Source: Mustelus asterias
Lineage: Eukaryota
Assembly (NCBI RefSeq): GCF_964213995.1
Contig: NC_135813.1
Coordinates: 61,256,001 to 61,320,000 of the forward strand
Reading direction: 5' to 3'
DNA: 64,000 bases
Shown here: piece after piece, positions 2,703-64,000 of the stretch
How the letters are laid out: the number at the start of each line of letters is the position of its first letter
How positions within the stretch are numbered: the first letter of the stretch is position 1
Program-made: the position numbers and the translations under genes
The notes under the pieces: model-generated
Database searches by the model: none
Told to the model about the DNA's origin: nothing
What the model saw: only the letters and a program-made list of their open reading frames with translations

Positions 2703-2762
2703 CAAGGAGAACAATGCCAGTGTTTTTAGGGAGGAGTTAAATAAGTGTATTTATTCATTTTT

Positions 2763-2918: not shown

Positions 2919-3479
2919 GCACCAGGGAGAAATGGAAAGAAGGATCTGCGATAAGATTAGATGCAGTAGGCTGAGAGGAGACTCCGGTGGAGCATAAATA
3001 TCGGCATAGACCAGTTGGAGAAATTGGCCTGATTCTCCGCTGAACCTTGCATATAATAATCCAACTGAGGTTGTCGGCAGTGAACATTGTTGAATTTACA
3101 TAACAATCTTCGCCACTCATTTGGGGTGCCGGCACGGTGGTACAGCTGTGGTACAGCTGTTCACTCTGCTGCCTCACAGAGCCGTAGGATTCGATTCTGT
3201 CCTTAGAAAAGGTGCTCTCTCGGATGGTAGGTGCACTGTACTGCTGCTGCGTTTCTATGGGAAGAAATCGGGATCTTTAGGGTTTAATCAAAATATGAAT
3301 GAATATTATTCGCAATGTACGGTGCTCTCTCATACTATGTAATAAATCTAAGTACGCTGTGATTAGCTAAGGCTCTCATGGTACAACATATAAATTACAT
3401 AGTTAGAAAATATCTTTTCATTTTGCCTGCATCTAAATCGTCGTAGATGTTCATACGTTGTTCCTACTTTTCTTTACAG

Positions 3480-3802
3480 AGCCTAAGGCCCCCACTGTCA
3501 CCGTCCTACCGCCTTCATCTGATCAAATCAAAGAAAAGGACAAGGCCACCCTGGTGTGTTTTCTTAATGGCTTTAATCCGGGAATTGTGGCGGTTGAATG
3601 GACTGTAGATGGCAGCGTCAGAGGGAATGGTGTTGTTACCAGTCGTGTACTGCAGGAGGCGGACAACACGTTCAGTGTGAGCAGTTATCTGACTCTGTCT
3701 TCCTCAGAGTGGAACTCACACGAGCTTTACTCCTGTGTGGTTAAACACGAGGCCCTAGCAAACCCGCTTAAAACAACTATAGAGAGGTCTAGCTGTATCT
3801 GA
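3480..3802 (+). CDS. IGL: Ig light chain gene 1, constant exon
   Basis: Polypyrimidine tract and acAG acceptor at 3478-3479; (E)PKAPTVTVLPPS...LVC...W...YSCVVKHE...RSSCI*; C1-set Ig domain with penultimate interchain Cys. Confidence 0.95.
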
Positions 3803-3992
3803 TGCAAGAATATTGAGTATTCTTCAATTGTAACCTTACTGAACGTCAGCAGAGCAAAACTGGAACTTAAAGGTGAATTTTTATTTTAAATGCTGTATTT
3901 CAAATAATAACATCAACCCAATTAGTTTATGCCATACCATTGTGAGGATGTGCTGACTCTGCAGTCATCTCACCTTTGTGCCACTGCATTGT

Positions 3993-3998
3993 AATAAA
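3993..3998 (+). terminator. polyadenylation signal, gene 1
   Basis: AATAAA about 190 bp after the stop, followed by GT/T-rich sequence; conserved at 60981-60986. Confidence 0.7.
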
Positions 3999-5539
3999 AT
4001 TATTCTTTCAGTGTGTCAGTTTAGAGTATCGTTTTCTTACTTCAATTTTCTTCGAATTTCTGGCCATTTTAAATTTCCTAATCGCGAGGCCGTATTCTTT
4101 ATAATATTTTGGGCATTTATAGAAAACACTTGTTCGAAATAACGCTTTTACAAAATTAATGGTTGGTCCCTTGGTACTGATATAACCTATCAAATGCTAC
4201 ATTGGCTTTAATACCTTGCATAATGATTGAAATACCTTCTGTCTGTGATGGAGTTAATCATTCGTCCTTGTTCTGCGTGACCTCAGTGTGGAACCAAACA
4301 AAGTCGCAGGACAAGCATTGGAAAATCTATATGGTAATCAGAATCCAACAGAATCAGATGGGAAGCTGAGCTTAAAAATAAATCAAACATCAGCATGTTT
4401 CAGCAAAAAGTGTACATGTGTCTTAGAATCGATCAAGTACATTGAATGAACAGTTTTGTCAAGCCGTGGATATTTGATCAGCGATAGTTACTTTTAAGAA
4501 AATGTCGAATCTTTTGTTTAAGTAGGAGAATATTGGCACAAATGCATCGCCAGCCGTGTCGCTGAGCGTCTGGCAGCCGACGTATTGAGGGACAACAGCA
4601 ACACTCTGCCTCAGCTGCTGCATAAAGAACTTTGTCACCTGACAGCATTCTAAAAGCTAAAGTAAAGTAAAAACAAGGCGGCAAGGTTTACTTGCTACAG
4701 CTGAGCTAGTTGCAGATTGGAAAGAGACACAAGGAGTGAAGGGGCAGCACAGTAAAGTCTATGTGTTACACGGCAGGAAGCAACAACTAAACTGAGGTGG
4801 TGCCGAAGCATGCTAGCAACTTTAAGTGTGTTGAGCAGGCAAAGGAAGCTGAGTACCGGGGCCAATGTGAGCTATGAGCTATTAGCCAAAGGCTGTGACA
4901 CAGCTGATTCGACTGGTCAAATCGACTGTAACAAAATATTGGGAGACGTAGGCTGATACGCAGTCAGACGTTCACTGCTGCAGACTTAGGTAAAGACTGT
5001 CACTCATGGGTGCTAAGACTGATTACATTCTGGGGTACATGAACCAGGACCCGTGAGCTTGCAAACAGTATAGCAGGACAGGACAAACGCAGAAACAGCA
5101 TGCGTTACATCTAAAAGAGGATTCACGACAGTAAAAAGAAAATGGGTTAAGTAGACAATCGCAGAGACAGAAGGTTGAGGCAAGCTTGTTTCACTGCACT
5201 GTTTTATTGTGAATTTGTCAGCTAAACTGCAGTCTGCAGAACCTTGCACAGGCTAGCTCCACCTCTTTAGAGGGTCACCGTTGAAAGCGTAAAATCTTTG
5301 TTGGCCTTATGTCAGTTAACGTTAAGAACGGAACATAAATGTTATCGTTGAATACATAACGTTTCCTCAATTGATAAACTTAAAGGAGGGAGCGAAACAA
5401 AGTCGTCTGTCCTGTGCTCCCCTAAGAATCTTTCCCTCTTCTCCCATCCCTACACCTCGTTTTCTTGAGCACATTCAAAACTCTGCCGATTCCCGGCTCG
5501 CAGCACTTGCAGCACACCCGCCAAAGGAACATAGGGCAG

Positions 5540-6905
5540 GAGGAAACCGGGAAATGAAGGCCAGTAAGCCTAACATATGCCGCTGGGAAAATGCTAACAT
5601 ATATTGTTTAGTGAATACTGGGAGGAAGCTTTGAAAATAACAATATAGTCAAAAAGAGTCAACAAAGTTTATTAAAAGTAGATCGTGGCTCACAAATTCA
5701 TTATCGTTCTTTGAAGGCTTTACAGGCAGAAGAAATAAACGAAACCCAGTAGATGTAGTCTATTTTGATTTCCAAAATCATTCAATAAGGCAAGTACAAG
5801 TACAGGTTTATTACAGAACATGCTAGCGTTGGATGCACTAAATGAGCACAGATAGACGATGTGCCAACCAACATTTAATATAGAGTCTGGAAAATGAGCC
5901 ATTCCTTGGTTAGCAAACTAATTAGTGGAGGGCCGTAGGTTATGGAGCGTCAACGTTTTACAATCTATATGAAGGGCGGATGAAAAGACCATGTGTATAT
6001 AACAAAGTTGCTGACCATACAAAGGTAATCAAGAAAGCAAATTTTGAGCAGGCTAAAAAGTGTCCGAAAGGGGATATAGATGGGATAAGCGGATGGGTAA
6101 AATTTACCAATGGAGTATAATGTGCGAAAATGTGAGGTTCTCAATTTGGCGGGAGCAATAGAAAAACTGGGCATTATTTAGATGGAGAGAGACTGCCGAA
6201 TTCTACAGCACAGAGATTTGGGTGTCCTCCTTCGTGAAGCACAAAAGGTTAGCGTGCAGGTACAGCAACTAATTAGGAGGAAAAATAAAGCATCGGAATT
6301 TAATGGAATGGTGAACTGTAAAAATAAGAAAGGTTTAGTATTGCTGATGATATTGATGAGACCGTAATTAGACAATTTCGCCGTTTGGCCTCTTTATTTG
6401 AGGAGTAATATTGGTGCATTAGTGAAAGTTCAGGGAAGGCCAGCAGTTGATTTCCGGGAAGATGTCATTGCCTGAGGACGAAAGGTTAAGCAACTTAGGC
6501 CTGTCATCACTGTTTTTTTAGAAGAGTGAAAGGTGATCTTATTAAAAATCTAGGTTTCTGAGGAATCTTAACAGGGAGCATGTTTCTCGTCGTTGGAGAG
6601 TTTAGAACTGCCGGCACTATCTCAGATTTAGGCGTCTCCCATTTAAGACACGGACGATGGAGAATTTATTGTCTTAGATCATGGTCATCCTATAGAATTC
6701 CATGGGAAATAGGAGTCTGGATCACTGAATGCATTCAAGGCAGAGTTAGGAGGGTTTTTGATCGACAAGGGTGTCAATTGTTAAGGGAGGCAGACAGGAA
6801 AGTAGATTTTAGGCAACAATCAAATAAACCATGATCTTGTTGAATGAGGGAGCAGGCTTGAGAGCCAGATTGTTTACCTTGCTGCCCTTTCGCACGTTCT
6901 TGTGA
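5540..6905 (+). mobile_element. Old degenerate CR1 LINE 3' part
   Basis: Decayed RT motifs (YFDFQ.., RDLGVL, LMRP) and a CR1-type 3' UTR; paralogous copies at about 37020-37860 and 62560-63925. Confidence 0.65.
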
Positions 6906-8599
6906 TAGTAGGAGATTTTGTTCCTCGTCAATTAGCTCATGGGCTGCTGTGAATGTTAATAGCCTTGCCCATTAACCTTACTAATCCTGCCTCAGAACAA
7001 TTCACCAACCTCCTTAAAAAATAAATAAACCGACCTATTTTGAATGAGGTTTTGGGTGAAGTCTATTCTGGATTCTCACTTCACTTTGTGCCACGAAGTG
7101 CACTGAGCACCCCTGAGTGGCAAATATGTAATTGTAACATAAAAGCCCATTTCTCCTGAACCAATTCCGTCACAGTAACCACCTTAATTAGATCATATGC
7201 TCACGGAATACAAGTCTATGCAGCCAGTTCTTGTAACACTTTAGGCATGGTATCATTATGGGGAATTTTCTCTGCCCCACCTAACTTCGACATGCATTTC
7301 CTGAGATGTGCTGCCCAGAAAAGAATAGATGATTCCATATGTGGTCAAACCAGATATTTGTATAGCTTTATAATGGTTACCAGGGGACAGTTGGCTAAAT
7401 GGTCAACACTGTGAGCTTGATTTCAGTTTTGACTGGACGCCTGCCCACCCACCCCATCATTGAGAGTGGGAGGCAGTGGCGACAGAACCAAGAATGACGC
7501 ATCAGGAAACAATGCTTTTGGGCAGCGAATGCGACAACTATCCATGCACATCACAGCCATTTTGAGATAAAGGCCAAATTTTTACCCGTTGCAATTCCTT
7601 TGTTTCCTGGATTTAACTGGCGGCGGAAGAGGCCATTTCCAGAACGCCAGCCCGGCAGATTTCGCTGCGCGGGCAGGTTTGGTGCGGGGCAATCTCTCCT
7701 GAATGAGACTCAAGGTCCATCTGATATGGAAATATGGAGGTTTATGTGGGCAAGTATCAAGCCGTCCATTTTAGTCTTGAGACTGACAGCTCAAATATTT
7801 ACTTAATTCTAGAATCTATGGATGAACAAAGGGATTTAGGTGGCTGTATACAAAGGCCACTCAAAATGATGGAACAGTTGCAAAAGGAAAAGTCAGACAG
7901 AAGGTAGCACTTTACCACAGACGCATTAGAATTAAAATGTGAGGGTACGATGCAGGGTTTTTTGGATAACGGGGTTGCCTGCCCCGACAACTAGATAGGT
8001 TAGCAGTCCCAACAGCAAGATTCATCCCCTGAAGAAGGGATCTCACAGTAGCTTTCGCAGTGAAAACCGTCGGGCTACCCACCTTGCCTTCGCCTTCCCC
8101 TGGTGCAGGTGAAATACGGGAGACGGAATGAATTTCTTCCGTGAGCATCAATTAACATCTTAAGGGCTTTAAACGGCCGAAGGGTGGGCGGGCTGCCTGA
8201 CACACTCCTTGTTCAGTATAATATGGGTGTCCGATCCGGAGTGCGCAGGAAGGCATTGTGGTCTTATGGTCAAATAGGGTGCAACGTGAGTCATTAAACA
8301 CGAGACAGAGGCTGTGATGCAGCTGAGTAAATAATCTCGGCTCGTAGCAACGAATGTGACAAAATATCGGTAGATGAGAGCTACCTTAAACCCCCACAAG
8401 ATTTTTAACCCGAACCCCACTGTGCCAGACCTGAGTGAAGACTTCCTGAGCTGCAAATAAGCTGGCATGACCGGTGGACAAACACAGAACGAATATTTCT
8501 TACATTTAAGTAAATATTCAAACCAGTAGGAAACTTGATTAAGTAGTCACCCTCAGAGTTCGAAGGTTGAGACACTCTATGCCAGTAACTTTCCTTGTT

Positions 8600-11500
8600 G
8601 AACAAAGAACAAAGAACAAAGAACAGTACAGCACAGGAAACAGGCCCTTCGGCCCTCCAAGCCTGTGCCGCTCCTTGGTCCAACTAGACCAATCGTTTGT
8701 ATCCCTCCATTCCCAGGCTGCTCATGTGACTATCCAGGTAAGTCTTAAACGATGTCAGCGTGCCAGCCTCCACCACCCTACTTGGCAGCGCATTCCAGGC
8801 CGCCACCACCCTCTGTGTAAAAAACGTCCCTCTGATGTCTGAGTTATACTTCGCCCCTCTCAGCTTGAGCCCGTGACCCCTCGTGATCGTCACCTCCGAC
8901 CTGGGACAAAGCTTCCCACTGTTCACCCTATCTATACCCTTCATAATCTTGTACACCTCTATTAGATCTCCCCTCATTCTCCGTCTTTCCAAGGAGAACA
9001 ACCCCAGTCTACCCAATCTCTCCTCATAGCTAAGACCCTCCATACCAGGCAACATCCTGGTAAACCTTCTCTGCACTCTCTCCAATGCCTCCACGTCCTT
9101 CTGGTAGTGCGGCGACCAGAACTGGACGCAGTACTCCAAATGTGGCCTAACCAGCGTTCTATACAGCTGCATCATCAGACTCCAGCTTTTATACTCTATA
9201 CCCCGTCCTATAAAGGCAAGCATACCATATGCCTTCTTCACCACCTTCTCCACCTGTGTTGCCACCTTCAAGGATTTGTGGACTTGCACACCTAGGTCCC
9301 TCTGTGTTTCTATACTCCTGATGACTCTGCCATTTATTGTATAACTCCTCCCTACATTATTTCTTCCAAAATGCATCACTTCGCATTTATCCGGATTAAA
9401 TTCCATCTGCCACCTCTCCGCCCAATTTTCCAGCCTATCTATATCCTGCTGTATTGCCCGACAATGCTCTTCGCTATCCGCAATTCCAGCCATCTTCGTG
9501 TCATCCGCAAACTTGCTGATTACACCAGTTACACCTTCTTCCAAATCATTTATATATATCACAAATAGCAGAGGTCCCAGTACAGAGCCCTGCGGAACAC
9601 CACTGGTCACAGACCTCCAGCCGGAAAAAGACCCTTCGACCACTACCCTCTGTCTCCTGTGGCCAAGCCAGTTCTCCACCCATCGAGCCACTTCTCCTTG
9701 TATCCCATGAGCCTTAACCTTCTTAACCAACCTGCCATGTGGGACTTTGTCAAATGCCTTACTGAAATCCATATAGACGACATCCACGGCCCTTCCTTCA
9801 TCAACCGTTTTTGTCACTTCCTCAAAAAACTCCACCAAATTTGTAAGGCACGACCTCCCTCTTACAAAACCATGTTGTCTGTCACTAATGAGATTGTTCT
9901 GTTCTAAATGCACATACATCCTGTCTCTAAGAATCCTCTCCAACAACTTCCCTACCACGGACGTCAAGCTCACCGGCCTATAATTTCCTGGGTTATCCCT
10001 GCTACCCTTCTTAAACAACGGGACCACATTCGCTATCCTCCAATCCTCAGGGACCTCACCCGTGTCCAAAGAAGCGACAAAGATTTCCGTCAGAGGCCCA
10101 GCAATTTCACCTCTCGTCTCCCTGAGCAGTCGAGGATAGATGCCATCAGGCCCTGGGGCTTTGTCAGTTTTAATGTTCCCTAAAAAACCTAACACTTCCT
10201 CTCTTGTAATGGAGATTTTCTCTAACGGGTCAACACCTCCCTCCGAGACACTCCCGGTTAACACGCCCCTCTCCTTCGTGAATACCGATGCAAAGTAATC
10301 ATTTAGGATCTCCCCTATTCCCTTGGGTTCTAAGCATAATTCCCCTCCTTTGTCCCTGAGAGGTCCTATTTTCTCCCTGACAACTCTTTTGTTCCTAACG
10401 TATGAATAGAATGCCTTAGGATTCTCCTTAATCCTGCCTGCCAAGAACATCTCGTGACCTCTTTTTGCCCTTCTAACTCCCCGTTTGAGATCTGTCCTAC
10501 TCTCTCTGTATTCCTCCAGAGCTCCATCTGTTTTTAGTTGCCTGGACGTAACGTACGCCTCCCTTTTCATTTTAATCAGATCCTCAATTTCCCTGGTTAT
10601 CCACGGCTCTCGAATCCTACCTTTCCTATCTTTCCTTTTTACAGGCACATGCCTATCCTGCAGCCTTATCAATAGTTCCTTAAAAGACTCCCACATGCCA
10701 GACGCGGACTTACCCTCGAACATCCTCTCCCAATCAACATCCACCAATTCCTGCCTAATCCGGCTATAGTCAGCCTTCCCCCAATTTAGCACCCTGTCCG
10801 TAGGACAGCACTCATCCTTGTCCATTACTATCCTAAAGTTAACAGAGTTGTGGTCACTATTTGCCACATGTTCCCCTACCGAAACTTTGACGACCTGACC
10901 GGGCTCATTTCCCAGAACTAGGTCCAGTATAGCCCCCTCTCTAGTCGGGCTATCTACATACTGTTCCAAAGAACCTTCCAGTACGCATTTTACAAATTTC
11001 TCCCCGTCCGGTCCCCCAGCTCTAAGCACTTTCCAGTCTGTGCCAGGGAAATTAAAGTCCCCCACTACAACAACCCTATGTTTTCTGCACCTATCCAGAA
11101 TCTCCTGACATATCATTTCCTCCACTTCCCGTGGGCTGTTGGGTGGTCTGTAGTACACCCCCAGCATAGTGACTGCACCCTTCCTGTTTCTGAGTTCCAC
11201 CCACAGCGACTCAGTACATGACCCCTCTAAGTTGTCTACCCTCTGCACCGCGGTAATATGCTCCTTAACTAATATCGCTACTCCCCCACCTTTTTTAGCC
11301 CCTCCTCTGTCTCGCCTAAAACACTTATACCCCGGAATATTCAGCTGCCAGTCCTGTCCTTCTTTTAACCAAGTTTCCGTCACCGCAACCACATCCAAAT
11401 TCCGCACAAGCATTAAGGCCCTAAGTTCGTCTGTTTTACCCGTTACACTCCTCGCATTGAAGCAGATGCACTCCAGACCTCCAGGCCCAGTCAGGTCCTC

Positions 11501-11628
11501 CTCCTCCAGAGTGCTCCTCTTCTTAGCTAGCCTTGCCTCAGTATTTACTGACCTCCTGTTTTGTTCCCCACCCCCCTGCCACACTAGTTTAAATCCTGCC
11601 GAAACACTCTAGCAAAACTCCCAGCCAG
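8600..11628 (-). mobile_element. Young 5'-truncated CR1 LINE (last ORF1 codons, full ORF2, 3' UTR, (GTTCTTT)n tail)
   Basis: Uninterrupted ORF2; microsatellite tail at about 8600-8625; ORF1 C-terminus LAGSFARVFRQDLN* ends at 11584. Confidence 0.95.
8684..11584 (-). CDS. CR1 ORF2: APE endonuclease plus reverse transcriptase
   Basis: 966-codon ORF with FNARS, TETW, GDFN, SDHN (APE) and NYRPVSLTS, DFSKAFD, GVPQGSVLGP, FADD (RT). Confidence 0.93.
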   Translation of the reverse strand: MWQGGGEQNRRSVNTEARLAKKRSTLEEEDLTGPGGLECICFNARSVTGKTDELRALMLVRNLDVVAVTETWLKEGQDWQLNIPGYKCFRRDRGGAKKGGGVAILVKEHITAVQRVDNLEGSCTESLWVELRNRKGAVTMLGVYYRPPNSPREVEEMICQEILDRCRKHRVVVVGDFNFPGTDWKVLRAGGPDGEKFVKCVLEGSLEQYVDSPTREGAILDLVLGNEPGQVVKVSVGEHVANSDHNSVNFRIVMDKDECCPTDRVLNWGKADYSRIRQELVDVDWERMFEGKSASGMWESFKELLIRLQDRHVPVKRKDRKGRIREPWITREIEDLIKMKREAYVTSRQLKTDGALEEYRESRTDLKRGVRRAKRGHEMFLAGRIKENPKAFYSYVRNKRVVREKIGPLRDKGGELCLEPKGIGEILNDYFASVFTKERGVLTGSVSEGGVDPLEKISITREEVLGFLGNIKTDKAPGPDGIYPRLLRETRGEIAGPLTEIFVASLDTGEVPEDWRIANVVPLFKKGSRDNPGNYRPVSLTSVVGKLLERILRDRMYVHLEQNNLISDRQHGFVRGRSCLTNLVEFFEEVTKTVDEGRAVDVVYMDFSKAFDKVPHGRLVKKVKAHGIQGEVARWVENWLGHRRQRVVVEGSFSGWRSVTSGVPQGSVLGPLLFVIYINDLEEGVTGVISKFADDTKMAGIADSEEHCRAIQQDIDRLENWAERWQMEFNPDKCEVMHFGRNNVGRSYTINGRVIRSIETQRDLGVQVHKSLKVATQVEKVVKKAYGMLAFIGRGIEYKSWSLMMQLYRTLVRPHLEYCVQFWSPHYQKDVEALERVQRRFTRMLPGMEGLSYEERLGRLGLFSLERRRMRGDLIEVYKIMKGIDRVNSGKLCPRSEVTITRGHGLKLRGAKYNSDIRGTFFTQRVVAAWNALPSRVVEAGTLTSFKTYLDSHMSSLGMEGYKRLV

Positions 11629-35671: not shown

Positions 35672-35899
35672 AGTAAGAGTTTTAACAACACCAGGTTAAA
35701 GTCCAACAGGTTTATTTGGTAGCAAATACCATTAGCTTTCGGAGCGCTGCTCCTTCGTCAGACATGTCCACTCCATCTGACGAAGGAGCAGCGCTCCGAA
35801 AGCTAATGGTATTTGCTACCAAATAAACCTGTTGGACTTTAACCTGGTGTTGTTAAAACTCTTACTGTGTTCACCCCAGTCCAACGCCGGCATCTCCAC
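35672..35899 (+). mobile_element. Penelope-like element: inverted pLTR pair
   Basis: Perfect 91-bp inverted arms at 35672-35762 and 35776-35866, then the family terminus; 12-bp TSD AGCAGGATTCTA at 35661-35672 and 35900-35911. Confidence 0.8.
35773..35809 (+). ncRNA. Minimal type I hammerhead ribozyme motif
   Basis: CCAU-CUGACGA-A-GGAGC(AGC)GCUCC-GAAA-GCU-A-AUGG; inverted copy with a weakened stem I at 35729-35762. Confidence 0.78.
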
Positions 35900-39865: not shown

Positions 39866-40627
39866 TAAACACAGTAAGAAGTTTAACAACACCAGGTTAA
39901 AGTCCAACAGGTTTATTTGGTAGCAAAAGCCACACAAGCTTTCGAGGCTCTGAGCCCCTTCTTCAGGTGAGTGGGAATTCTGTTCACAAACAGAACTTAT
40001 AAAGACACAGACTCAATTTACATGAATAATGGTTGGAATGCGAATACTTACAACTAATCCAGTCTTTAAGAAACAAAACAATGGGAGTGGAGAGAGCATC
40101 AAGACAGGCTAAAAAGATGTGTATTGTCTCCAGACAAGACAGCCAGTGAAACTCTGCAGGTCCACGCAACTGTGGGAGTTACAAATAGTGTGACATAAAC
40201 CCAGCAGAAACTGATAGCCAAGTTCCGCACACACAAGGACGGCCTCAACCGGGATATTGGGTTTATGTCACACTATTTGTAACTCCCACAGTTGCGTGGA
40301 CCTGCAGAGTTTCACTGGCTGTCTTGTCTGGAGACAATACACATCTTTTTAGCCTGTCTTGATGCTCTCTCCACTCCCATTGTTTTGTTTCTTAAAGACT
40401 GGATTAGTTGTAAGTATTCGCATTCCAACCATTATTCATGTAAATTGAGTCTGTGTCTTTATAAGTTCTGTTTGTGAACAGAATTCCCACTCACCTGAAG
40501 AAGGGGCTCAGAGCCTCGAAAGCTTGTGTGGCTTTTGCTACCAAATAAACCTGTTGGACTTTAACCTGGTGTTGTTAAACTTCTTACTGTGTTTACCCCA
40601 GTCCAACGCCGGCATCTCCACATCATG
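39866..40627 (+). mobile_element. Penelope-like element 3' end with an inverted pLTR
   Basis: 338-bp inverted arms at 39866-40203 and 40258-40595; GIY-YIG-type C-terminus QKLIAKFRTHKDGLNRDIGFMSHYL* at 40205-40282; TCTTTAAACA direct repeat at 39862-39871 and 40628-40637. Confidence 0.85.
40492..40528 (+). ncRNA. Minimal type I hammerhead ribozyme motif (mirror copy at 39933-39969, minus strand)
   Basis: CAC-CUGAAGA-A-GGGGC(UCAGA)GCCUC-GAAA-GCU-U-GUG. Confidence 0.75.
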
Positions 40628-43083: not shown

Positions 43084-44360
43084 CATAGAAACATAGGAAA
43101 TAGGTAGAGGAGGAGGTCATTTGGCACTTCGAGCCTGCTCCGCCATTCATTGTGATCCTCGCTAACCGTTCAACTCAATAGCCTAGTCTTGCTTTCTCCC
43201 CATAACCGTTGATCCCATTTGCCCCAAGTGCTATATCCAGCCGCCTGTTGAATACATTCAATGTTTTGGCGTCAACTACTTCCTGTGGTAATGAATTCCA
43301 CAGCCTCGCCACACTTTGGGTGAAGAAATGTCTCCTTACCTCCGTCCCAAATGGTCTACCCCGAATCCTCAGACAGTGACCCTGGTTCTGGACTCCCCCA
43401 CCAACGGAAACATCCTCCCTGCATCTACCCTGTCTAGTCCTTTTAGAATTTTGTAAATCTCTATGAGCTCCCCCCTCGTTCGTCTGAACTCCAGCGAAAC
43501 CAATCATAACCTAATCAATCTCTCCTCATATATCAATCCCGCCATCCCCGGAATCAGCCAGGTAAACCTTCGCTGCACTCCCTCGAGAGCAAGAACACCC
43601 TTCCTCAGAAAAGGAGACCAGAACTGCACATAATATTCGAGGTGTGGCCTCACCAAGGCCCTGTATAATTGCAAGAACACATCCCTGCTCCTGTGCTCGA
43701 AACATCTCGCAATGAAGGCCAACATAGTATTTGCCTTCTTTACTGCCTGCTGCATCTGCATGCCTACCTTCAGCGACTGGTACACAAGGGCACACAGGAC
43801 CCGCTGCGCAACCCCCTCTCCCAACTTACTACCATTCAGGTATTACTTTGCCTTCTTGTTTTTGCTTCCAAAGTCAATAATCTTATCCAAATTATACTGC
43901 ATCTGTCGTTGATTTGCCCACTCACTCAACCTGTCCAGATCATTCTAAAGGATCTCTGCATCCTCGTCACATTTCACCCTTCCACCCAACTTGGTATCAT
44001 CTGCAAACTTTGAGATGTTACATTTTGTTCCCTCATCCAAATCATTTATGCATATTGTGAATAGCTGGGGTACCAGCACCGATCGCTGTGGCACCCCATT
44101 AGTTACTGCCTACCGATTTGAAAAAGCCCATTAATTCCTACACTTTCTTTCCTCTCTGCCAACCAGTTTTCTATCCATCTCAATACACTTCCCCCAGTCC
44201 CATGTGCTTTAATCTTGCACGATAGTCTCTTACGTGGGACTTTATCAAACACTTTCTGAAAGTCCAAATATACCACATCAACTGGCTCCCCCTTGTCAAC
44301 TCTATGAGTTACATCTTCAAAGAATTCCATCAGATTTGTCAAGAATGATTTCCCCTTCAT
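43084..44360 (-). mobile_element. Older CR1 LINE, 3' part (host of the nested insertion)
   Basis: RT C-terminal fragments; the sequence resumes at 47671 (..HGFM|KGKS..). Confidence 0.88.
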
Positions 44361-44442
44361 AGAACATAGAACATAGAACAGTACAGCACAGAACAGGCCC
44401 TTCGGCCCACGATGTTGTGCCGACCTTTATCTGAAACCAAGA

Positions 44443-47346
44443 TCAAGCTATCCCACTCCCTATCATCCTGGTGTGCTCCATGTGCCTATCCAATAACCGC
44501 TTAAATGTTTCTAAAGTGTCTGACTCCACTATCACTGCAGGCAGTCCATTCCACACCCCAACCACTCTCTGCGTAAAGAACCTACCTCTGATATCCTTCC
44601 TGTATCTCCCACCACGAACCCTATAGTTATGCCCCCTTGTAATAGCTCCATCCACCCGAGGAAATAGTCTTTGAACGTTCACTCTATCTATCCCCTTCAT
44701 CATTTTATACACCTCTATTAAGTCTCCCCTCAGCCTCCTCCGCTCCAGAGAGAACAGCCCTAGCTCCCTCAACCTTTCCTCATATGACCTACCCTCCAAA
44801 CCAGGCAGCATCCTGGTAAATCTCCTCTGCACTCTTTCCAGCGCTTCCACATCCTTCTTATAGTGAGGTGACCAGAACTGCACACAATATTCCAAATGTG
44901 GTCTCACCAAGGTCCTGTACAGTTGCAGCATAACCCCACGGCTCTTAAACTCCAACCCCCTGTTAATAAAAGCTAACACACTATAGGCCTTCTTCACAGC
45001 TCTATCCACTTGACTGGCAACCTTTAGAGATCTGTGGATATGGACCCCAAGATCTCTCTGTTCCTCCACAGTCTTCAGAACCCTACCTTTGACCCTGTAA
45101 TCCACATTTAAATTAGTCCTACCAAAATGAATCACCTCACATTTATCAGGGTTAAACTCCGTTTGCCATTTTTCAGCCCAGCTTTGCATCCTATCTATGT
45201 CTCTTTGCAGCCTACAACAGCCCTCCACCTCATCCACTACTCCACCAATCTTGGTGTCATCAGCAAATTTACTGATCCACCCTTCAGCCCCCTCCTCTAA
45301 GTCATTAATAAAAATCACAAAGAGCAGAGGACCAAGCACTGATCCCTGCGGCACACCGCTAGCAACCTGCCTCCAATCCGAAAATTTTCCATCGACCACC
45401 ACCCTCTGTCTTCAGTCAGACAGCCAGTTACCCATCCAATCGGCCAACTTTCCCTCTATCCCACACCTCCTCACTTTCATCATAAGCCGACCATGGGGGA
45501 CCTTATCAAACGCCTTACTAAAATCCATGTATATGACATCAACTGCCCTACCTTCATCAACACACTTAGTTACCTCCTCAAAAAATTCTATCAAATTTGT
45601 GAGGCACGACTTGCCCTTCACGAATCCGTGCTGACTATCTCGGATTAATCCGCATCTTTCTAAATGGTCGTAAATCCCATCCCTAAGGACCCTTTCCATC
45701 AATTTACCAACCACCGAAGTAAGACTAACCGGTCTATAATTACCAGGGTCATTTCTATTCCCTTTCTTAAACAGAGGAACAACATTCGCCATTCTCCAGT
45801 CCTCTGGCACCATCCCCGTGGACAGCGAGGACCCAAAGATCAACGCCAAAGGCTCTGCAATCTCATCCCTTGCCTCCCACAGAATCCTAGGATATATTTC
45901 ATCAGGCCCAGGGGACTTATCGACCTTCAGTTTATTCAAAACTGCCAAGACATCCTCCCTCCGAACATCTATTTCCTCCAGCCTATTAGCCTGTAACACC
46001 TTCTCTTCCTCAAAAACATGGCCCCTCTCCTTGGTGAACACTGAAGAAAAGTATTCATTCATCACCTCGCCTATCTCTACTGACTCCATACACAAGTTCC
46101 CACTACTGTCTTTGACCGGCCCTAACCTCACCCTGGTCATTCTTTTATTCCTCACATAAGAGTAAAAAGCCTTGGGGTTTTCCTTGATCCGACCCGCCAA
46201 GGACTTCTCATGTCCCCTCCTAGCTCTCCTAAGCCCCTTTTTCAGCTCATTCCTTGCTAACTTGTAACCCTCAATCGAGCCATCTGAACCTTGTTTCCTC
46301 ATCCCTACATAAGCTTCCCTCTTCCTTTTCACAAGACATTCCACCTCTTTTGTGAACCATGGTTCCCTCACTCGGCCATTTCCTCCCTGCCTGACAGGAA
46401 CATACCTATCAAGGACATCCAGTATTTGTTCCTTGAAAAAGCTCCACTTTTCATTAGTTCCTTTCTCTGACAGTTTCTGTTCCCAACTTATGCCCCCTAA
46501 TTCTTGCCTAATCGCATCATAATTACCCCTCCCCCAATTGTAAACCTTGCCCTGCCGTACGGCCCTATCCCTCTCCATTGCAATAACAAAAGACACCGAA
46601 TTGTGGTCACTATCTCCAAATTGCTCTCCCACAACCAAATCTAACACTTGGCCCGGTTCATTTCCCAGTACCAAATCCAATGTGGCCTCACCTCTAGTCG
46701 GCCCATCCACATATTGTGTCAGGAAACCCTCCCGCACACACTGCACAAAAACTGCCCCATCCAAACTATTTGACCTACAAAGGTTCCAATCAATATTTGG
46801 AAAGTTAACGTCCCCCATGACAACTACCCTGTGACCCCTACACATATCCATAATCTGCTTAGCAATTTCTTCCTCCACATCTCTATTACTATTTGGGGGC
46901 CTATAGTAAACTCCTAGCAACGTGACCGCTCCTTTCCTATTTCTAACTTCAGCCCATATTACCTCAGTGTGCAGATCCCCCACGAAGTGCCTTTCCGCAG
47001 CCGTTAAACTATCCTTGATTAACAATGCCACTCCTCCACCTCTTTTACCAGCTTCCCTACACTTAGTGAAACATCTATACCCCGGAACGTCCAACAACCA
47101 TTCCTGTCCTTGTTCTACCCACGTCTCCGTAATGGCCACAACATCGTAGTCCCAAGTACCAATCCACGCCCCAAGTTCATCTACCTTGTTCCGGATGCTC
47201 CTTGCATTGAAGTAGACACACTTCAACCCACCTTCCTGTCTACCAGTACCCACCCTTGACCCTGACACCTTCCCCAATACCTCACCACCCTCACTGACTT
47301 CTGGACTACAACTCCCTTTCCCACTCCCCTGACAAATTAGTTTAAA
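44443..47346 (-). pseudogene. CR1 ORF2 (APE plus RT) with a single premature stop
   Basis: ORFs 45412..47457 and 44443..45402 are in the same frame, separated by LSD*RQR. Confidence 0.88.
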
Positions 47347-47667
47347 CCCCCCTGAAGAGCCGTAACAAATTTCCCTCCGAGGATATTGGTGCCCCTCTGG
47401 TTCAGGTGCACCCCGTCCTGTTTGTACAGGTCCCACCTTCCCCAGAACGTGTTCCAATTATCCACGTATCTGAAACCCTCCCTCCTACACCATCCCTGCA
47501 ACCACATATTTAACTGCACTCTCTCCCTGTTCCTCAACTCGCTATCACGTGGTACCGGCAACGTACCAGAGATGACCACATGTTTCGTCTTGGCTCTCAG
47601 CTTCCAGCCCAGCTCCAGAAATTCCTGCTTTAAATCCCCGTCCCTTCTCTTACCTATGTCATTGGTA
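47337..47667 (-). CDS. CR1 ORF1 C-terminal fragment (SGNH esterase-like)
   Basis: TNDIG...VVISGTLP...LYKQDGVHLN..GT motifs typical of the CR1 ORF1 esterase domain. Confidence 0.75.
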
Positions 47668-47670
47668 GAG

Positions 47671-48222
47671 CATGAATCCATGCTGACTCTGTCTGATCCT
47701 GCCACTGCTTTCTCCATGCTCCGATATAAAATCCTTGATAACGGATTGGAGAACTTTCCCCACTGCTGATGTTAGGCTTACTGGCCTATATTTCCCTGTT
47801 TTCCCTGTACCTCCCTTTTTGAATAATAGAATGACATCAGCTACCCTCCAATCTGCCGGGACTGTTCCAGAGTCTATAGCATCCTGGAAGATGACCAGCA
47901 ATGAATTCGTTATTTCTCGAGCCACTTCCTTAACTACTCTGGGATGTAGATTATCAGGCCTTGGGGATCTATCCACCTTCAATCCCATCAATTTTCCCAG
48001 CACCATTTCTCTAATAATACTGATCTCCCTCAGTTGTTCCCTCTCACTACATCTTGCATTCTCTAACATATCTGATATCTGATTTGTGTCCTTTTTTGTG
48101 AAGACAGAACCAAAGCATGTATTCAAATGCTCAGCCATTTCCTTGTCCCTATTCTACATTGCCCCGTTTCTGTCTGTAGGGGACCTACATTTGTCTTCAG
48201 CAACCTCTTTCTCTTCACGTAG
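47671..48222 (-). mobile_element. Older CR1 LINE, 5' part
   Basis: ORF piece LHPRVVKE...KYRPVSLTS...QSQHGFM. Confidence 0.85.
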
Positions 48223-56335: not shown

Positions 56336-57118
56336 CGCCATTTTGTGTCCGCGCTGAACTAAAGCTGGCGACTCACAATCTTCAGGCTCTGCTGCGCAAT
56401 GACACAAGTCAATGATCAATACGCATCTGCAGTATGTATCATCTCTCTGCCTCGGAGAATGATTTGTCGCAAGCGTAGGTGGCGAATTCAAGTGATTCCA
56501 AGGTCTCTATAACATAAATGCATTATCCCCTCAATATTGCAATGAAACTAATGTAATTTGCTCCCAATGAAATCCACTTTCCATTGAAACAGAAATTAAG
56601 AAGCTGCACTTCTTTAAAGCTAGTCGGTAGGATTTGTTGACGTGTTCCCCGTTGGATTTTACATATGCATTGCGTCCCCGGGCGATAATTCTTAAACTGA
56701 ATAGAAATCGAAATCACTGAGGCTTGAATCAGGAGAGGCGCGTCATGCAATGGTCTGCCAGCAGCCGACTCTGCACTATAGTTGGACCTTTCTTTCAGTT
56801 GAAGAATGCTTAATTATTTAAAGTCGCATTTGGTTAAATGGCAATGTGTGGTTGAATCTTGTAGGTTTGAACGAATTTCAATTGATCGCCAATGTCGCAG
56901 AATTTAAACAGTCAGATGTATCTTTTTAAAATCAATCAATGTAATTTCCCATGAACTCAATCAGCGTCGCCACAGTAAATTGGGTGACGAAATTTACATT
57001 CAACAATTTCGGTATGTTATAAATTAGTCGGGTGTTAAGGAAATATGGAATATTAACTTCAACAAACGTCAAGCGGACTAATTCCAAGCATCCAATCAAC
57101 AGTCGTGAGGTGTTAGAC

Positions 57119-57126
57119 ATTTGCAT
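57119..57126 (+). promoter_or_regulatory. Ig promoter octamer, gene 2
   Basis: ATTTGCAT about 125 bp upstream of the leader ATG. Confidence 0.85.
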
Positions 57127-57250
57127 AACTCGTCCATGCGGTTGTGATATCCGGTGGTGTAAATGTTCTTAAAGAGAGGTTTAGACGCTGCCGAATTATT
57201 AGATTCAAGTAGGGAAATATTTTGTTCTGCTCTTGATCAGGATCTACAAA

Positions 57251-57299
57251 ATGAGCGAGTGGCTTCTTGTTTTCGGCGTTATGGCGCTTTGTTTGCAAT
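57251..57299 (+). CDS. IGL: Ig light chain gene 2, leader exon (MSEWLLVFGVMALCLQ)
   Basis: ATG at 57251; donor T|GTAAGT at 57300. Confidence 0.9.
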
Positions 57300-57449
57300 G
57301 TAAGTACGAGTCTGGATTTTTTTAAAAATCTTTCTCTTCCCCTGATCAAATCAAATCAATCCCAAATGAAATATTTGATTTGGTCGAAGCAGGACTGCTG
57401 AACTGTTTACGGAAGAGTCGCTGAGCAATAACATTTTAATTTTTTTTAG

Positions 57450-57800
57450 GTACCAACGCTGCTTCTGTGCTAACTCAGTCAGCGTCCGTCTCAACTTCAC
57501 TGGGAAGAACCGTCAAAATCACTTGCACCATGTCCGGCGGCAGCATCAGCAGCTACCACACCAGCTGGTACTGGCAGAAAGCTGACAGTTCCCCTGTTTT
57601 CGTTTGGAGGGACTATGATTCTTCTCGAGGTTCGGGGATTCCTGAGCGATTCACTGGATCGAGGGACACATCGAGAAACGTTATGCAGTTAACCATCTCC
57701 AATGTAAAGACCGAGGATGTCGCTGATTATTATTGTGGCGCCTGGGATTACACTGTTGGTGGATTCGTTTTCGGGAAAGGAACTAAACTCTATGTGGGCG
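57450..57800 (+). CDS. IGL: Ig lambda-type (type II) light chain gene 2, germline-joined V-J exon
   Basis: Acceptor at 57448-57449; open V with CGAWDYTVGGFVFGKGTKLYVG; donor at 57801. Confidence 0.95.
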
Positions 57801-59608
57801 GTAAGTAGAATTTTCGCCATGTAAATCTCAGATTGTTAAACTTCAAATTCTGAATTTATCTAGCAGCGCAGAAATTCTTTGGAACAAACATTGATAATTC
57901 ATGCATGATGTCTTAGAAATAAGTCTGTTTCCAGTTTGTTGCTCCAGAAAATAGATGTCCTAACATCTTCGGATTTTTTATTTGGAGCGGCATTGTAATT
58001 GAGCTTGCCGAAATTTAATTTTAATGCATCCATAATACGTGTTAATCTGCATGGGAAGCTATTGAGAAACATACAGATGCTCGTTATTTACTTTACATCA
58101 CTTTGCAATGAAAATACCCGGTGTGATGTTTTGAAATGCATATTAAGCGACATCATTACGTGAAATATTTTACAATTCCCCCATGCGATGGTATTAGGTA
58201 GTCGCATTCAGGGAGTTGGAGCCTTTGCATTTTCTGGGAAGATTCAGTGATCTCTATACTCAGCAGAAATGGTTCCGTTGTTGCGACATTTTCAACATTG
58301 TGTTTCATATCAGTCATTTATTTATAATTTCACCTGTAAATAATAAATAACAACAATACATCCCGATTAGATCAGGAATTTTAATATCAATTGCACATTT
58401 TAAGAATCCGACGTTCTTTTTGGAGATGACGTATTGAGATATCAGTGATAAAATGGAAATAGTGGTTTGTTTTCTTATGAGAGTCTTTACGGATGAGGGC
58501 AGTAATCTCTGTTTAGTATGATAAGTAAAATAAAAAATAGTGGCTAGAGAGAGTTTAATTGAATTCCATCAAGTTGAACTTCCTTGGTAATCTCTGAGAG
58601 CTTGATTGATCGTCATCAAGAAATCAAGGCAATTTACTTCCGACAATTGGGCATATGTTTTTCGCTATTTTCTTTCCGAAGATTATAGGAGGGAGCAAAA
58701 CAGGAGATGTTCTGCAATTAATGGCATGGTACACTTTCCCCATCTTTCTCAGCGTATGCTATAGTATTGTATGAGCATTAGACGTTGATCCCACAAGCGC
58801 TGAGAGAATAGTACTTTCGAATCTGATTCATTTTATATGAATGTTACTGCGGGATCAGTAAATAAAAGTAAATCCCAGATTCAAGCGAATGTTTACAATC
58901 TCTTTGCGCTATTCCAGGAGCAGCAAAACGTCACAATTCGAAATTTATTCCCCATCCTCGTCCGAATGATTGCCTGAAAAGAAGCATGTTATTATTTCGA
59001 GCTTCTTGCTTTATTTACTATCACCGTGCTTCAAAGTACTTTGTGTGCGATCTGATATTGTGCTCTAAGGTGCCACTCAGTATTCCTTTATAGTAATATT
59101 AGCAAGTAGAAATATTTCAAATTTCTGTAGCAAATGATTCACCGTGTGCTTGGGAACCTAAAATCTGAAATATCTGGAAGCATTTAAATCAAACATTGTC
59201 TGGAGATTAACTTTGCCCGGGGTAGTAGTAGTTCCAGCATTTAATCATAATCAATTGAAAAACAAATCAGGCACTTGGCTGGTGCTCTGAAAGATGGAAC
59301 AGACTGGGACACTTTTCTCTGGAAGAGACTGTTGGAGGGGGGTTGTGGGCACCATTTAATACAGCGCTACAAAATTGATGGATTCCTAGCATAGGTCTTG
59401 ACAAGGTATTTTCACTTTCGTGTTTCCCCAAATACATAGCGTATAGTCACTAATAAAATGAGTGAAAAATCCGAGAGATAACGCTTGTAATTTACCGCCA
59501 CATCCACTGGGCACTGAGAACAATGCCAGTGTTTTTAGGGAGGAGATAAACAAATGTATTTATTCATTTTTTAAAGTTTATGTATGAGTGTCACATGTAG
59601 GCTAACAA

Positions 59609-59793
59609 GCGGGTACAATTTTATCTTTTAAAAAGCATTTAGATAGTTACATGGGTACGATGGGTATAGAGGGACATGGGCCAAATGCGGGCAATTGGGA
59701 TTAGTTTAGGGGCTTAAAAAAAAGGGGCGGCATGGACAAGTTGGGCCGAAGGGCCTCTTTCCATGCTGTAAACCTCTATGACTCTATGACTTT
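59609..59793 (+). mobile_element. CR1 3'-terminal fragment specific to the gene 2 J-C intron
   Basis: CR1 3' UTR with a (CTCTATGA)n tail; absent at the paralogous site near 2799. Confidence 0.8.
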
Positions 59794-60468
59794 AATAGCA
59801 CCGCAATGAAGTTACTGAGAAAATCCCCTTGTTGCCACACTCCGGCGCCTGTTCGGGTACACTGATGGAGCATTTAGCATGGCCAACGCACCTTACCAGC
59901 ACGTCTTTCGGACGGCACCAGGGAGAAATGGAAAGAAGGATCTGGGATAAGATTAGATGCAGTAGGCTGAGAGGAGACTCCGGTGGAGCATAAATATCGG
60001 CATAGACCAGTTGGAGAAATTGGCCAGATTCTCCGTTGAATCTTGCATATAATAATCCAACTGAGGTTGTCGCCACTGAACGTTGTTGAATTTACATAGC
60101 AATCTTCGCCACTCATTTGGTGGTGCCGGTACGGTGGTATAGCTGTGGTGCAGCTGTTCACTCTGCTGCCTCACAGAGCCGCAGGATTCGATTCTGTCCT
60201 TAGAAAAGGTGCTGTCTTGGACGGTCGGCTGCTGTGTTTTTACGCGAAGAAATCGAGATATTTAGGGTTTAATCAAAATGTGGATGAATATTATTTGCAA
60301 TGTACAGTGCCCTCTGATACTATGTAATAAATCTATGTACTCTGTGATTAGCCAAGGCTCTCATGCTCCAACATATAAATTACATAGTTAAATGAAAAAT
60401 ATCTTTTCATTTTGACTGCATCTAATTCGTCGTAGATGTTCATACGTTGTTCCTACTTTTCTTCACAG

Positions 60469-60791
60469 AGCTTAAGGCCCCCACTGTCTCCGTCCTTCCG
60501 CCTTCATCGGATCAAATCAAAGAAAAGGACAAGGCCACCCTGGTGTGTTTTCTTAATGGCTTTAATCCGGGAATTGTGGAGGTTGAATGGGCTATAGATG
60601 GCAGTGTCAGAGGGAATGGTGTTGAGACCAGTCGTGTACTGCAGGAGGCGGGCAACACGTTCAGTGTGAGCAGTTTTCTGACTCTGTCAGCCTCAGAGTG
60701 GCACTCACACAATCTTTACTCCTGTGTAGTTAAACACGAGGCCCTAGCAAACCCGCTTAAAATAACTATAGAGAGGTCTAGCTGTATCTGA
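60469..60791 (+). CDS. IGL: Ig light chain gene 2, constant exon
   Basis: acAG acceptor at 60467-60468; intact C1 domain ending RSSCI*. Confidence 0.95.
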
Positions 60792-60980
60792 TGCAAGAAT
60801 ATTGAGTATTCTTCAATTGTAACCTTACTGAACGTCAGCAGAGCAAAACTGGAACTTAAAGGTGAATTTTTATTTTAAATGCTGTATTTGAAGTAATAAA
60901 AAAACCAAATTAGTTTATGCCATACCATTGTGAGGATATGCTGATTCTACAGTCATCTCAACTTTCTGTCACTGCAGTGT

Positions 60981-60986
60981 AATAAA
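60981..60986 (+). terminator. polyadenylation signal, gene 2
   Basis: AATAAA at the paralogous position; a second AATAAA at 60895-60900. Confidence 0.7.
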
Positions 60987-63900
60987 ATTATTCTTTCAGT
61001 GTGTCAGTTTATAGTGTCGTTTTCTTACTTCAATTTTCTTCGAATTTCTGGCCATTTTAAATTTCCTAATCGCGAGGCCGTATTCCTTATAATCTTTTGG
61101 ACATTTATAAAAAACACTTGTTCGAAATAACGCTTTTACAAAATTAATGGTTGGTCACTTGGTACTGCTATAACCTATCAAATACTACATTGGCTTAAAT
61201 AGCTTGCACAATGATTGAAATATCTTCTGTCTGTGATGGAGTTAATCATTCGTTCTTGTTCTGCGTGACCTCAGTGTGGAACCAAATAAAGTCGCAGGAC
61301 AAGCATTGGAAAATATATATGGTAATCAGAATCCATCAGAATCAGGTGGGAAGCTGAGCTTAAAAATACATCAAACATCAGCATGTTTCAGCAAAAAGTG
61401 TACATGTGTCTTAGAATCGATCAAGTACATTGAATGAACAGTTTTGTCAAGCCGTGGATATTTGATCAGCGATAGTTACTTTTAAGAAAATGTCGAATCT
61501 TTTGTTTAATTAGGAGAATATTCGCACAAATACATCGCCAGCCGTGTCGCTGAGCGTCTGGCAGCCGAAGTATTGAGGGTCAACAACAACACTCTGCCTC
61601 AGCTGCTGCAAAAAGAGCTTTGTCACTTGACAGAATTCTAAAAGCTAAAGTAAAGTAAGAACAAGACGGCAATGTTTACTTGCTACAGCTGAGCGAGTTG
61701 CAGATTGGAAAGAGAAACAAGGAGAGAGGGGCAGCACAGTGAAGTCTATGTGTTACACGGCAGGAAGTAATAACACAACTGAGGTAGTGCCGAAGCATGC
61801 TAGTAACTTTAAGTGTGTTGAGCAGGCAGAGGAAGCTGATTACCAGGGGCCAACGTGAGGCATTCGCTATTAGCCAGAGGCTGTGACACAGCTGATTCGA
61901 CTGGTCATATCGACTGTAACAAAATATTGGCAGAGGAAGCAAAACTGACGCGGCTGATACGCAGTCAGACAGACGTTCACTGCTGCAGACTTGGGTAAAG
62001 ACTGTTGCTCATGGGTACTAACATTGATTACATTCTGGGATACATGAGCCAGGACCCGTGAGCTTGTAAACAGTGTAGCAGGACAGGACAAACACAGAAA
62101 GAGCATGCGTTACATCTAATAGAGGATTCACGACAGTGAAAAGAAAATGGGTTAAGTAGACAATCGCAGAGACTGAATGTTGAGGCAAACTGGTTTCACT
62201 GCACGATTTTATTGTGAATTTGTCAGCTAAACTGCAGTCTGCAGAATCTTGCACAGGCTGGCTCGACCTCTTTAGAGGGTCACCGTTGAAAGCGTAGGAC
62301 CTTTGTTGGCCTTATGTCAGTTAACGTTAAGAACGGAACATCAACGGTATCGTTGAATACATAACGTTTGCTCAATTGATAAACTTAAAGGAGAGGCAGC
62401 GAAACAAAGTCGTCTGTCCAGTGCTCTCCTCAGAGTCTTTCCCTCTTCTCCCATCCATACAGCCTCGTTTTCATGAGCACATTCAAAACTCTGCCGATTC
62501 CCGCTTCGCAGCACTTGCAGCACACCCGTCAGAGGAACGTAGGGCAGGAGGAACCGGGAAAATGTAGCCCAGTAAGCCTAACATATGCCTCTGGGATAAT
62601 GCTAACATATATTTTTTAGTGAATACTGGGAGGAGGCTTTGAAAATACCAATATAATCAAAAAGAGTTAACGTAGTTTTACAAGAAGTAGATCGTGGCTG
62701 ACAAATCCATTATCGTTCTTTGAAGGCTTTACAGGCAGAAGGGTTAAAGGAAATCCAGTAATGTAGACTATTTTGATTTCCAAAAGCATTCAATAAGGTG
62801 CCATGTACAAGTTTATTACAGAACATGTTAGCGTTAGATGCGCTAAATGAACACAGATAGACGATGTGCCAACTAACATCTAATATAGAGCCTGGAAAAT
62901 GAGCCATTCCTCGTTTAGCAAAATAATTAGTGGAGGGCCGTAGGTTATGTAGCGTCAACTTTTTACAATCTATATGAAGGATGGATGAAAAGATCATGTG
63001 TATATAACAAAGTTGCTGACCATACAAAGGTAATCAAGAAAGCAACTTTCGAGCAGGCTAAAAAGTGGCTGAAAGGGAATGTAGATGGGATAAGCGGATG
63101 GGTAAAATTTACCAATGGAGTATAATGTGCAAAAATGTGAGTTTCCCAATTTGGCGGGAGCAATAGAAAAACTGGGCATTATTTAGATGGAGAGAGACTA
63201 CCGAATTCTACAGCACAGAGATTTGGGTGTCCTCCTTCGTGAAGCACAAAAGGTTAGCGTGCAGGTACAGCAAGTAATTAGAAAGAAAAATATGGCATCG
63301 GAATTTAATGGAATGGTGAACTATAAAAATAAGAGAGGTTTGGTATTGCTGATGATATTGATGAGACCGTAATTAGACTATTTCGCCGTTTGGCCTCTTT
63401 ACTTGAGGAGTAATATTGGTGCATTAGTGAAAGTTCAGGGAAGGCCAGCAGTTGATTCCCGGGATGATTTCGTTGCCTTAGGACGAAAGGTTAAGCAAGT
63501 TAGGCCTGTCATCACTGTTTTTTAGAAGAGTGAAAGGTGATCTCATTAAAAAATCGAGGTTTCTGAGGAATCTTAACAGGTTAAATACTGGGAGCATGTT
63601 TCTTGTCGTTGGAGAGTTTAGAACTACCGGCACTATCTAAAATTCAAGCGTCTCCCATTTAAGATACGGACGAGGGAGAATTTATTGCCTTAGATCATGG
63701 TCATCCTTTAGAATTCCATAGGAAATAGGAGTCTGGATCACTGAATGCATTCAATCCAGAGATAGAAGGGCTTCTGATCGACAAGGGAGTCAATAGTTAA
63801 GGGAGGCAGGCAGGAAAGTAGATTTTAGGCAAGAATCAAATCAGCCATGATCTTGTTGAATGATGGAGCATGCTCGAGAACCAGATTGTTTACTTTGCTG

Positions 63901-64000
63901 CTCTTTCGCACGTTCCTGTGATAGTAGGAGACTTTGTTCCTCGTCAATTAGCTCATGGGCTGCTCTGAATGTTAATAGCCTTGCCCCATTAAGCTTACTA

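Follow-up and report, generated by a model that had tools for sequence, protein, structure and literature searches.

A slippery heptamer at the ORF1/ORF2 junction of vertebrate CR1 elements and its likely use in -1 frameshifting

How ribosomes reach the second open reading frame of LINE elements is described as an open question in the reviews consulted, where the documented routes are of the reinitiation type (PMC3894237, PMC5009743). The question is raised again by a window of 64,000 nucleotides from the shark Mustelus asterias (the whole stretch of DNA analyzed here), in which ORF2 of a CR1 copy overlaps the end of ORF1 in the -1 frame; CR1 is the dominant repeat group in most vertebrates according to PMC13343379. 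A preliminary description of this DNA had proposed that the overlap is a recoding signal, followed by an RNA G-quadruplex and shared with a second CR1 family in the window.

The element in question, here called the focal copy, is a CR1 LINE by its domains and its ends. What is left of ORF1 carries an esterase domain (PF13472, E 1.6e-8), is 99% identical to a full-length protein (P0001) and has its nearest named relatives in the sharks Mustelus and Stegostoma, while ORF2 carries PF03372, PF14529 and PF00078, the APE endonuclease and reverse transcriptase (RT) of CR1-clade LINEs. Since ORF2 also contains an in-frame stop (45412-45414), this copy is dead. The 3' microsatellite and the 5' truncation, which falls within ORF1, are those of the CR1 clade, and by eye the junction matches rows labeled LINE/CR1 in the PMC13343379 supplement. 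The family has very many copies in those sequencing runs that match it best (4776 contigs matched from run X1), and past 47667 its contigs continue with sequence that differs from the window. The copy was inserted into the ORF2 of an older CR1, the halves of which flank it (window 43400-44357 and 47671-48200, minus strand) and the frame of which reads H-G-F-M/K-G-K-S across the insertion; no clear target-site duplication was seen around the insertion, and the 5' joint has three unmatched bases. The second family is represented by a truncated element at 11.6 kb, which retains about 45 nt of sequence ahead of the heptamer and has a stop-free ORF2 of 974 codons. The window also holds a direct duplication of about 7 kb (2-6983 and 56949-64000, 91-92% identical) and near-perfect palindromic, MITE-like elements (39866-40595 and 35672-35866, about 95% self-complementary) that have ends in common with 2565-2702. 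Among the database proteins, shark-type CR1 ORF1 and ORF2 proteins (P0008, P0173) are filed under bacterial NCBI names (Pseudomonas, Carnobacterium), which is probably host-DNA contamination.

Table 1. Window coordinates of the CR1 elements and of the features at their ORF1/ORF2 junctions
Feature	Position	Strand	Description
Focal copy	44358..47667	minus	Shark-type CR1 LINE copy, 5'-truncated, decayed
ORF1 end	47337..47666	minus	Last 109 codons and stop, finishing G-L-N; SGNH/GDSL esterase
Slippery heptamer	47346..47340	minus	T TTA AAC (X XXY YYZ) in ORF1 phase, ORF1 stop directly after
Overlapping slippery-type heptamer	47343..47349	minus	G GGT TTA, one codon upstream; not conserved (GAT or GCT elsewhere)
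ORF1 stop	47339..47337	minus	TAA
Stop overlapping -1-frame ATT	47335..47339	minus	Candidate stop-start site
-1-frame linker	47215..47336	minus	Variable, stop-free, ATG-free
G-cluster	47320..47329	minus	GGGG-AGT-GGG, 11 nt past the heptamer; candidate 3' stimulator
Third GGG of proposed quadruplex	47314..47316	minus	Minority variant; AGG in most family copies
ORF2	44443..47346	minus	APE endonuclease and RT, -1 frame
3' tail	44358..44380	minus	Microsatellite of TGTTCTA repeats, without poly(A)
11.6-kb element	8684-11608	minus	Second CR1 family
Junction of 11.6-kb element	11567..11593	minus	T TTA AAC TAG, 10-nt spacer, GGGGGG-T-GGGG

The reading of the junction in the preliminary description was borne out for the most part. 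ORF1 of the focal copy does end in GGT TTA AAC TAA (in fuller context CAG GGG GGT TTA AAC TAA), with a heptamer of the X XXY YYZ type in the phase of the upstream frame, and the -1 frame does continue as F-K-L-I-C-Q-G-S-G and on to the endonuclease and RT. The first ATG is found deep in the endonuclease, as claimed, at 46851 (..AKQIMD). This is codon 166 past the heptamer and 121 codons beyond the YFNARS endonuclease motif at codon 45, and the whole endonuclease is therefore unattainable from an AUG start. The -1 frame is likewise open and lacks an AUG ahead of the first domain in the 11.6-kb element, where the first Met is codon 61, after CFNARS, and in the metagenome locus L015, where it is codon 68. 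A TTG at 47457 does open the ORF track, but it is merely the first codon after the upstream -1-frame stop, and the -1 frame upstream of the heptamer is open for 37 codons in the focal copy and for only 1-5 in the 11.6-kb element, L006, L008, L010 and L030. The -1 phase is retained over linkers of very different lengths, the endonuclease motif falling at codon 45 in the focal copy, 38 in L010, 62 in L015 and 89 in L006. Among the 40 listed of 140 variant rows of the focal family, none creates an ATG in the linker (the linker rows were checked by hand) and none falls in 47337-47350.

The heptamer and its phase are, as described, common to both elements of the window, the 11.6-kb element reading G GAT TTA AAC TAG TG. 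The GTG that overlaps the stop there is absent from the focal copy, although the position holds ATT, another near-cognate start. F-K-L is also read across the junction in P0014 and P0061, database proteins derived from frameshifted copies, which adds further families with the same frame relation. The junction 12-mer alone is not rare, as 36 of 100 shuffles of the window match it at one mismatch, and its evidential weight hence lies in its position and conservation and not in its presence.

Conservation was examined in metagenomes with an alignment of the ORF1 esterase, using motifs far from the junction so that the junction itself played no part in the search. The scan gave at least 80 loci, most of them bacterial, of a termite-gut type or ending before the junction. 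Among the matches listed, seven amniote-type CR1 loci reach the junction, a further one (L004) ends inside it, and none provides shark junction DNA. Six of the seven (L006, L008, L010, L014, L015 and L030) read GCT TTA AAC and the seventh (L009) is decayed. With both window elements counted alongside these listed matches, 8 of 9 vertebrate-type junctions preserve the heptamer intact, and the TTTAAA columns are invariant in all eight aligned junctions of this set. The ORF1 3' ends of the focal copy and the six amniote-type loci share only 47-82% DNA identity. Given the peptide and the codon usage of the elements themselves, in which TTA makes up 4-16% of Leu codons, the probability of the heptamer is 0.016 for the focal copy, 0.035 for the 11.6-kb element and 0.004 for the amniote lineage, values that hold per lineage and cannot be freely multiplied because the lineages are related. 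These comparisons indicate that T TTA AAC is constrained at the DNA level.

Published consensus sequences extend the range of the junction. The PMC13343379 supplement was queried, over the initial 400 nt of its consensuses and with junctions classified by eye, for the heptamer plus the first bases of the stop. There were 23 matches, 17 of which are ORF1/ORF2 junctions (chimaera, sharks, rays, bowfin, halosaur, coelacanth, frog and crocodilians). Across these consensuses the first T of the heptamer falls in the wobble position of codons for Ala, Gly, Asp, Tyr, Cys or Leu. Free variation of the Leu-Asn codons, which would speak against the signal proposed in the preliminary description, was not found: eleven synonymous variants, with AAT, with a different Leu codon or with a changed wobble base ahead of Leu, had 57 matches within the same 400 nt, none of them at a junction, versus the 17 junctions with T TTA AAC TA. 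The heptamer is thus under synonymous-site constraint, as far as these eleven variants in related lineages go and with two of the seven matches to a stop starting with TG inspected, and this outcome favors a nucleotide signal. The claim of a conserved recoding signal has gained in that more families carry it than the two in the window, but calling these two independent support was too strong, since the two ORF2s have 72% DNA identity and a common ancestry. From the sequences compared, the junction is conserved across jawed vertebrates, in elements of sharks, bony fish, amphibians, reptiles and birds.

The ends of the ORF1 proteins carry a trace of the same pattern. After clustering at 50% identity, 80 of 150 representative ORF1 proteins end 22-40 residues past the DGxH motif, and 51 of these finish with a dipeptide compatible with a slippery heptamer (LN in 42, GN in 9). 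The background for such dipeptides is 4.9% at internal positions and 0 of 41 in bacterial SGNH genes, which were taken from a genome-contig scan that also returned a 506-nt fragment. Named members ending in LN include turtles, the Komodo dragon and a snake. In the ORF1 tree, the GN ends cluster inside a branch whose other deep members finish in LN, and ends in F-F-R or F-F-H are nested within the GN-ending cluster; both kinds of end may represent swaps to other slippery heptamers. Unnamed ORF1 clusters ending in Q-G-N or F-F-R/H are P0062, P0070, P0074, P0077, P0079, P0087, P0089, P0111 and P0129; P0071, P0092 and P0124.

We consider it likely that the junction serves to produce a Gag-Pol-like fusion of ORF1 and ORF2 through -1 programmed frameshifting. 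In active members of the family, ribosomes on the esterase ORF1 would reach U_UUA_AAC just before the stop, where the majority would terminate and release ORF1p. A minority would slip back by one base, with tRNA-Leu moving from UUA to UUU and tRNA-Asn from AAC to AAA, and traverse the linker into the endonuclease and RT, giving an ORF1p-ORF2p fusion at a set ratio with the predicted junction ..G-L-N followed by L-I-C-Q. The G-run past the heptamer may act as a protein-binding site, and slow termination at the adjoining stop possibly aids the shift. The sequences themselves show the heptamer in its phase, the lack of an AUG and the conservation in DNA; from these we infer the slippage, the fusion protein and the role of the G-run. 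U_UUA_AAC ranks among the shiftiest heptamers on mammalian ribosomes in PMC5009743. A protein search found no long natural ORF1-ORF2 fusion proteins, which is weak evidence, and a search with the ORF2 N terminus gave three proteins, none of which recognizably extends to the heptamer.

The main rival is coupled termination and reinitiation at the ORF1 stop, in which translation would resume in the -1 frame, either on the codon that overlaps the stop or on an AUG in the linker, and ORF2p would be a separate protein. It is a real rival because in-frame AUGs are present in some families: 3 of the 17 consensuses, all from sharks, have TAATG, the layout of SART1; there are AUGs in the linkers of L006 (codons 5, 17 and 59) and L010 (codons 23 and 25); and the long linker of a database protein (P0174) opens with Met. 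Upstream in-frame AUGs, which the preliminary description had named as counting against the signal, are accordingly present in some families and absent from the focal one. In addition, the overlapping codon is GTG or ATT in the 11.6-kb element, the focal copy and the chimaera and stingray consensuses, and reinitiation is documented for SART1 and L1 (PMC3894237, PMC2881922, PMC1965478). However, the focal copy has TAATT in place of the SART1-type UAAUG overlap, and in the amniote and bony-fish families the overlapping codon is GGT, GAT, AAG, CAG, AGC, GCT, GAA or GGG. A restart would also leave the fixed wobble T, the TTA codon and the LN/GN ends unexplained, and UGGGA, the calicivirus reinitiation motif, is not found upstream in 3 of 8 loci and otherwise lies at scattered distances. 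As the amniote and bony-fish codon is no start while the heptamer is kept, frameshifting accounts for nearly all of the data and reinitiation for a part; we regard reinitiation as an unlikely explanation for the junction, although both processes could operate in some families.

A bare slippery heptamer shifts poorly, and the frameshift reading therefore depends on a candidate stimulator on the 3' side. The G-richness noted there in the preliminary description is retained, and in a fixed position: the G-run begins exactly 11 nt past the heptamer in all seven intact loci that are long enough (the window elements and the metagenome matches listed). The GGGG is invariant in all eight aligned rows while the 10 spacer bases vary, and the codon ahead of the run ends in G whether its residue is Gln, Lys or Ser. 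Of the 17 consensuses, many of which visibly miss bases, 5 have the exact +11 offset and 13 have at least four consecutive Gs within +4 to +14. The structured stimulator usually expected 5-9 nt downstream was not found: folding gave no stable downstream hairpin in four downstream windows (z -0.60 to +0.90), Rfam had no match at the junction, and no pairing partner of the G-run lies at a conserved position across the loci, pseudoknots being covered indirectly in these analyses. The 3' stimulator is probably the G-run 11 nt downstream rather than a hairpin or pseudoknot. Transcriptional slippage was also considered and rejected by inference, as conservation does not extend to the G6 run preceding the heptamer.

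That the G-run would act as an RNA G-quadruplex, as first proposed, we find improbable. The 25 nt past the heptamer are among the highest by G4Hunter-type scores in each element, with ORF2 blocks scoring as high numbering 6 of 227 in the focal copy, 0 of 226 in the 11.6-kb element, 0 of 253 in L006 and 0 of 112 in L010, and ViennaRNA predicts a two-tier fold in three of eight loci (the 11.6-kb element, L006 and L008). Synthetic quadruplexes are moreover known to stimulate frameshifting (PMC5009743). In the focal copy, however, there are only three tracts, ViennaRNA gives no fold with G-quadruplexes enabled, and the +11 cluster holds no set of four G3 or G2 tracts joined by loops of up to 7 nt. 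The third tract is itself GG in most family copies, since position 47316 is A and not G in 76% (X1), 88% (X3), 100% (X8) and 100% (X13) of depth-weighted contigs. Four G3 tracts with short loops occur in 0 of 9 loci, and two-tier motifs are common in ordinary ORF2 sequence (13-19 of 49-55 blocks of 60 nt). An intermolecular or non-canonical quadruplex at the G-run is possible.

Least probable of all is that the motif is kept for another reason, as C-terminal residues of ORF1p and N-terminal residues of ORF2p, a TATA-like promoter or a splice signal, with ORF2 made from another transcript or start: L-N is fixed 26 residues from DGxH in the vertebrate clade and kept in 30 of 33 rows, and TTTAAA plus the G-box resembles, by our inference, promoter words, but a need of the protein does not fix synonymous positions, LN lies 26-39 residues from DGxH in other clades, a shorter transcript would still have no AUG ahead of the focal endonuclease, the possible acceptor AG is missing from the crocodilian junctions, and no joint with splice-type ends was found in the run contigs (weak evidence, as it concerns contigs only).

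Other lineages with an esterase ORF1 may have arrived at frameshifting or readthrough by different means. In the termite-gut loci, ORF1 and the endonuclease lie in one frame with a single TGA between them. Of the 11 loci scored among the matches listed, 10 have C directly after this TGA, and six have CTA. A UGA followed by C is a readthrough-type context, and this TGA is a candidate for stop-codon readthrough. The family comprises L018, L021, L022, L029, L032, L035, L044, L051, L053, L054, L061 and L075, and by eye also L040, L046, L068 and L073, with TGA mostly followed by CTA or CCA. Another locus (L011:1810-1850) carries A AAA AAC, read in the phase of ORF1, 33 nt ahead of the stop, and its -1-frame endonuclease is free of Met; no strong hairpin forms downstream (-6.2 kcal/mol). 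Together, the heptamer of L011 and the UGA-C of the termite-gut loci suggest fusion by recoding as the common outcome. Fish-like esterase ORF1s with a TGA stop were seen in L003:1163-1282 and L007:1820-2100, the endonuclease of L007 continuing in the same frame. Scans of viral contigs found no CR1 relatives and only two unrelated SGNH genes, and a plasmid tblastn found no CR1 relatives.

The focal copy resembles the canonical vertebrate CR1 with an esterase ORF1 in its ORF1, its APE and RT ORF2 and its microsatellite 3' end, and the identical junction sits in published consensus sequences (PMC13343379). These elements are classified as type IVB and CR1 subgroup 7 (PMC4120745; also PMC13343379), and the esterase structure has been described (PMC3905857). 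The word "frameshift" has no occurrence in the main texts and supplements searched of these three papers, which leave the route to ORF2 undiscussed, nor in the passages searched of PMC2734521. In literature searches outside Repbase and the subscription papers of 1997-2003, we found no report of frameshifting into CR1 ORF2; the overlap may be mentioned in the Repbase notes or in Haas 1997, Kajikawa 1997 or Kapitonov and Jurka 2003. The non-LTR cases in PMC5009743 are HeT-A, TART and L1 only, with no match to CR1 in 300,000 of its 449,034 characters.

Among bicistronic LINEs, the UAAUG coupling of SART1 and the AUG-independent ORF2 of L1 likewise involve a -1-frame ORF2 at the ORF1 stop (PMC3894237, PMC2881922), but the focal family has TAATT, and SART1 and L1 need no slippery heptamer. 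Non-LTR groups 1-3 of Paramecium are also sequence-based proposals of recoding for a LINE ORF2, although in another clade, by +1 frameshift or readthrough, and in a ciliate host (PMC5405496). The arterivirus nsp2 frameshift is trans-activated by nsp1beta and PCBP on CCCANCUCC, which lies 11 nt 3' to the shift site (PMC5009743). The CR1 motif, too, is unstructured and of low complexity and begins 11 nt past the shift site, but it is G-rich rather than C-rich and follows another heptamer, and the likeness is one of position only; we treat the +11 offset as a lead toward a trans-acting stimulator and not as evidence. It is conceivable, though doubtful, that esterase-ORF1 LINEs in general make a recoded RT-ORF1p fusion, be it by U_UUA_AAC, by other heptamers (A_AAA_AAC as seen in L011, and presumably G_GGA_AAC where proteins end in Q-G-N) or by the termite-gut UGA, with the vertebrate shift working through a protein bound to the G-run and not through RNA structure. 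If so, vertebrate CR1 would be the host-transposon counterpart of the arterivirus trans-activated frameshift.

A close parallel is the -1 frameshifting of coronavirus ORF1a/1b and of gag-pol in retroviruses and LTR elements, with the same heptamer (U_UUA_AAC in coronaviruses) in the phase of the upstream frame and a polymerase frame at -1 that has no usable AUG (PMC5009743). In contrast to these systems, CR1 has no pseudoknot or hairpin 5-9 nt downstream, and the host is a non-LTR element. If frameshifting is indeed how ORF2 is translated, CR1 would gain a retrovirus-like expression strategy in which the RT and the ORF1p particle are linked in a fixed proportion, the assumed start position of CR1 ORF2 would need correcting, and the junction would provide a compact cassette whose stimulator is unusual in being unstructured. 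In heptamer and in frame, the CR1 junction resembles the coronavirus and retrovirus -1 frameshift, minus the usual structured stimulator.
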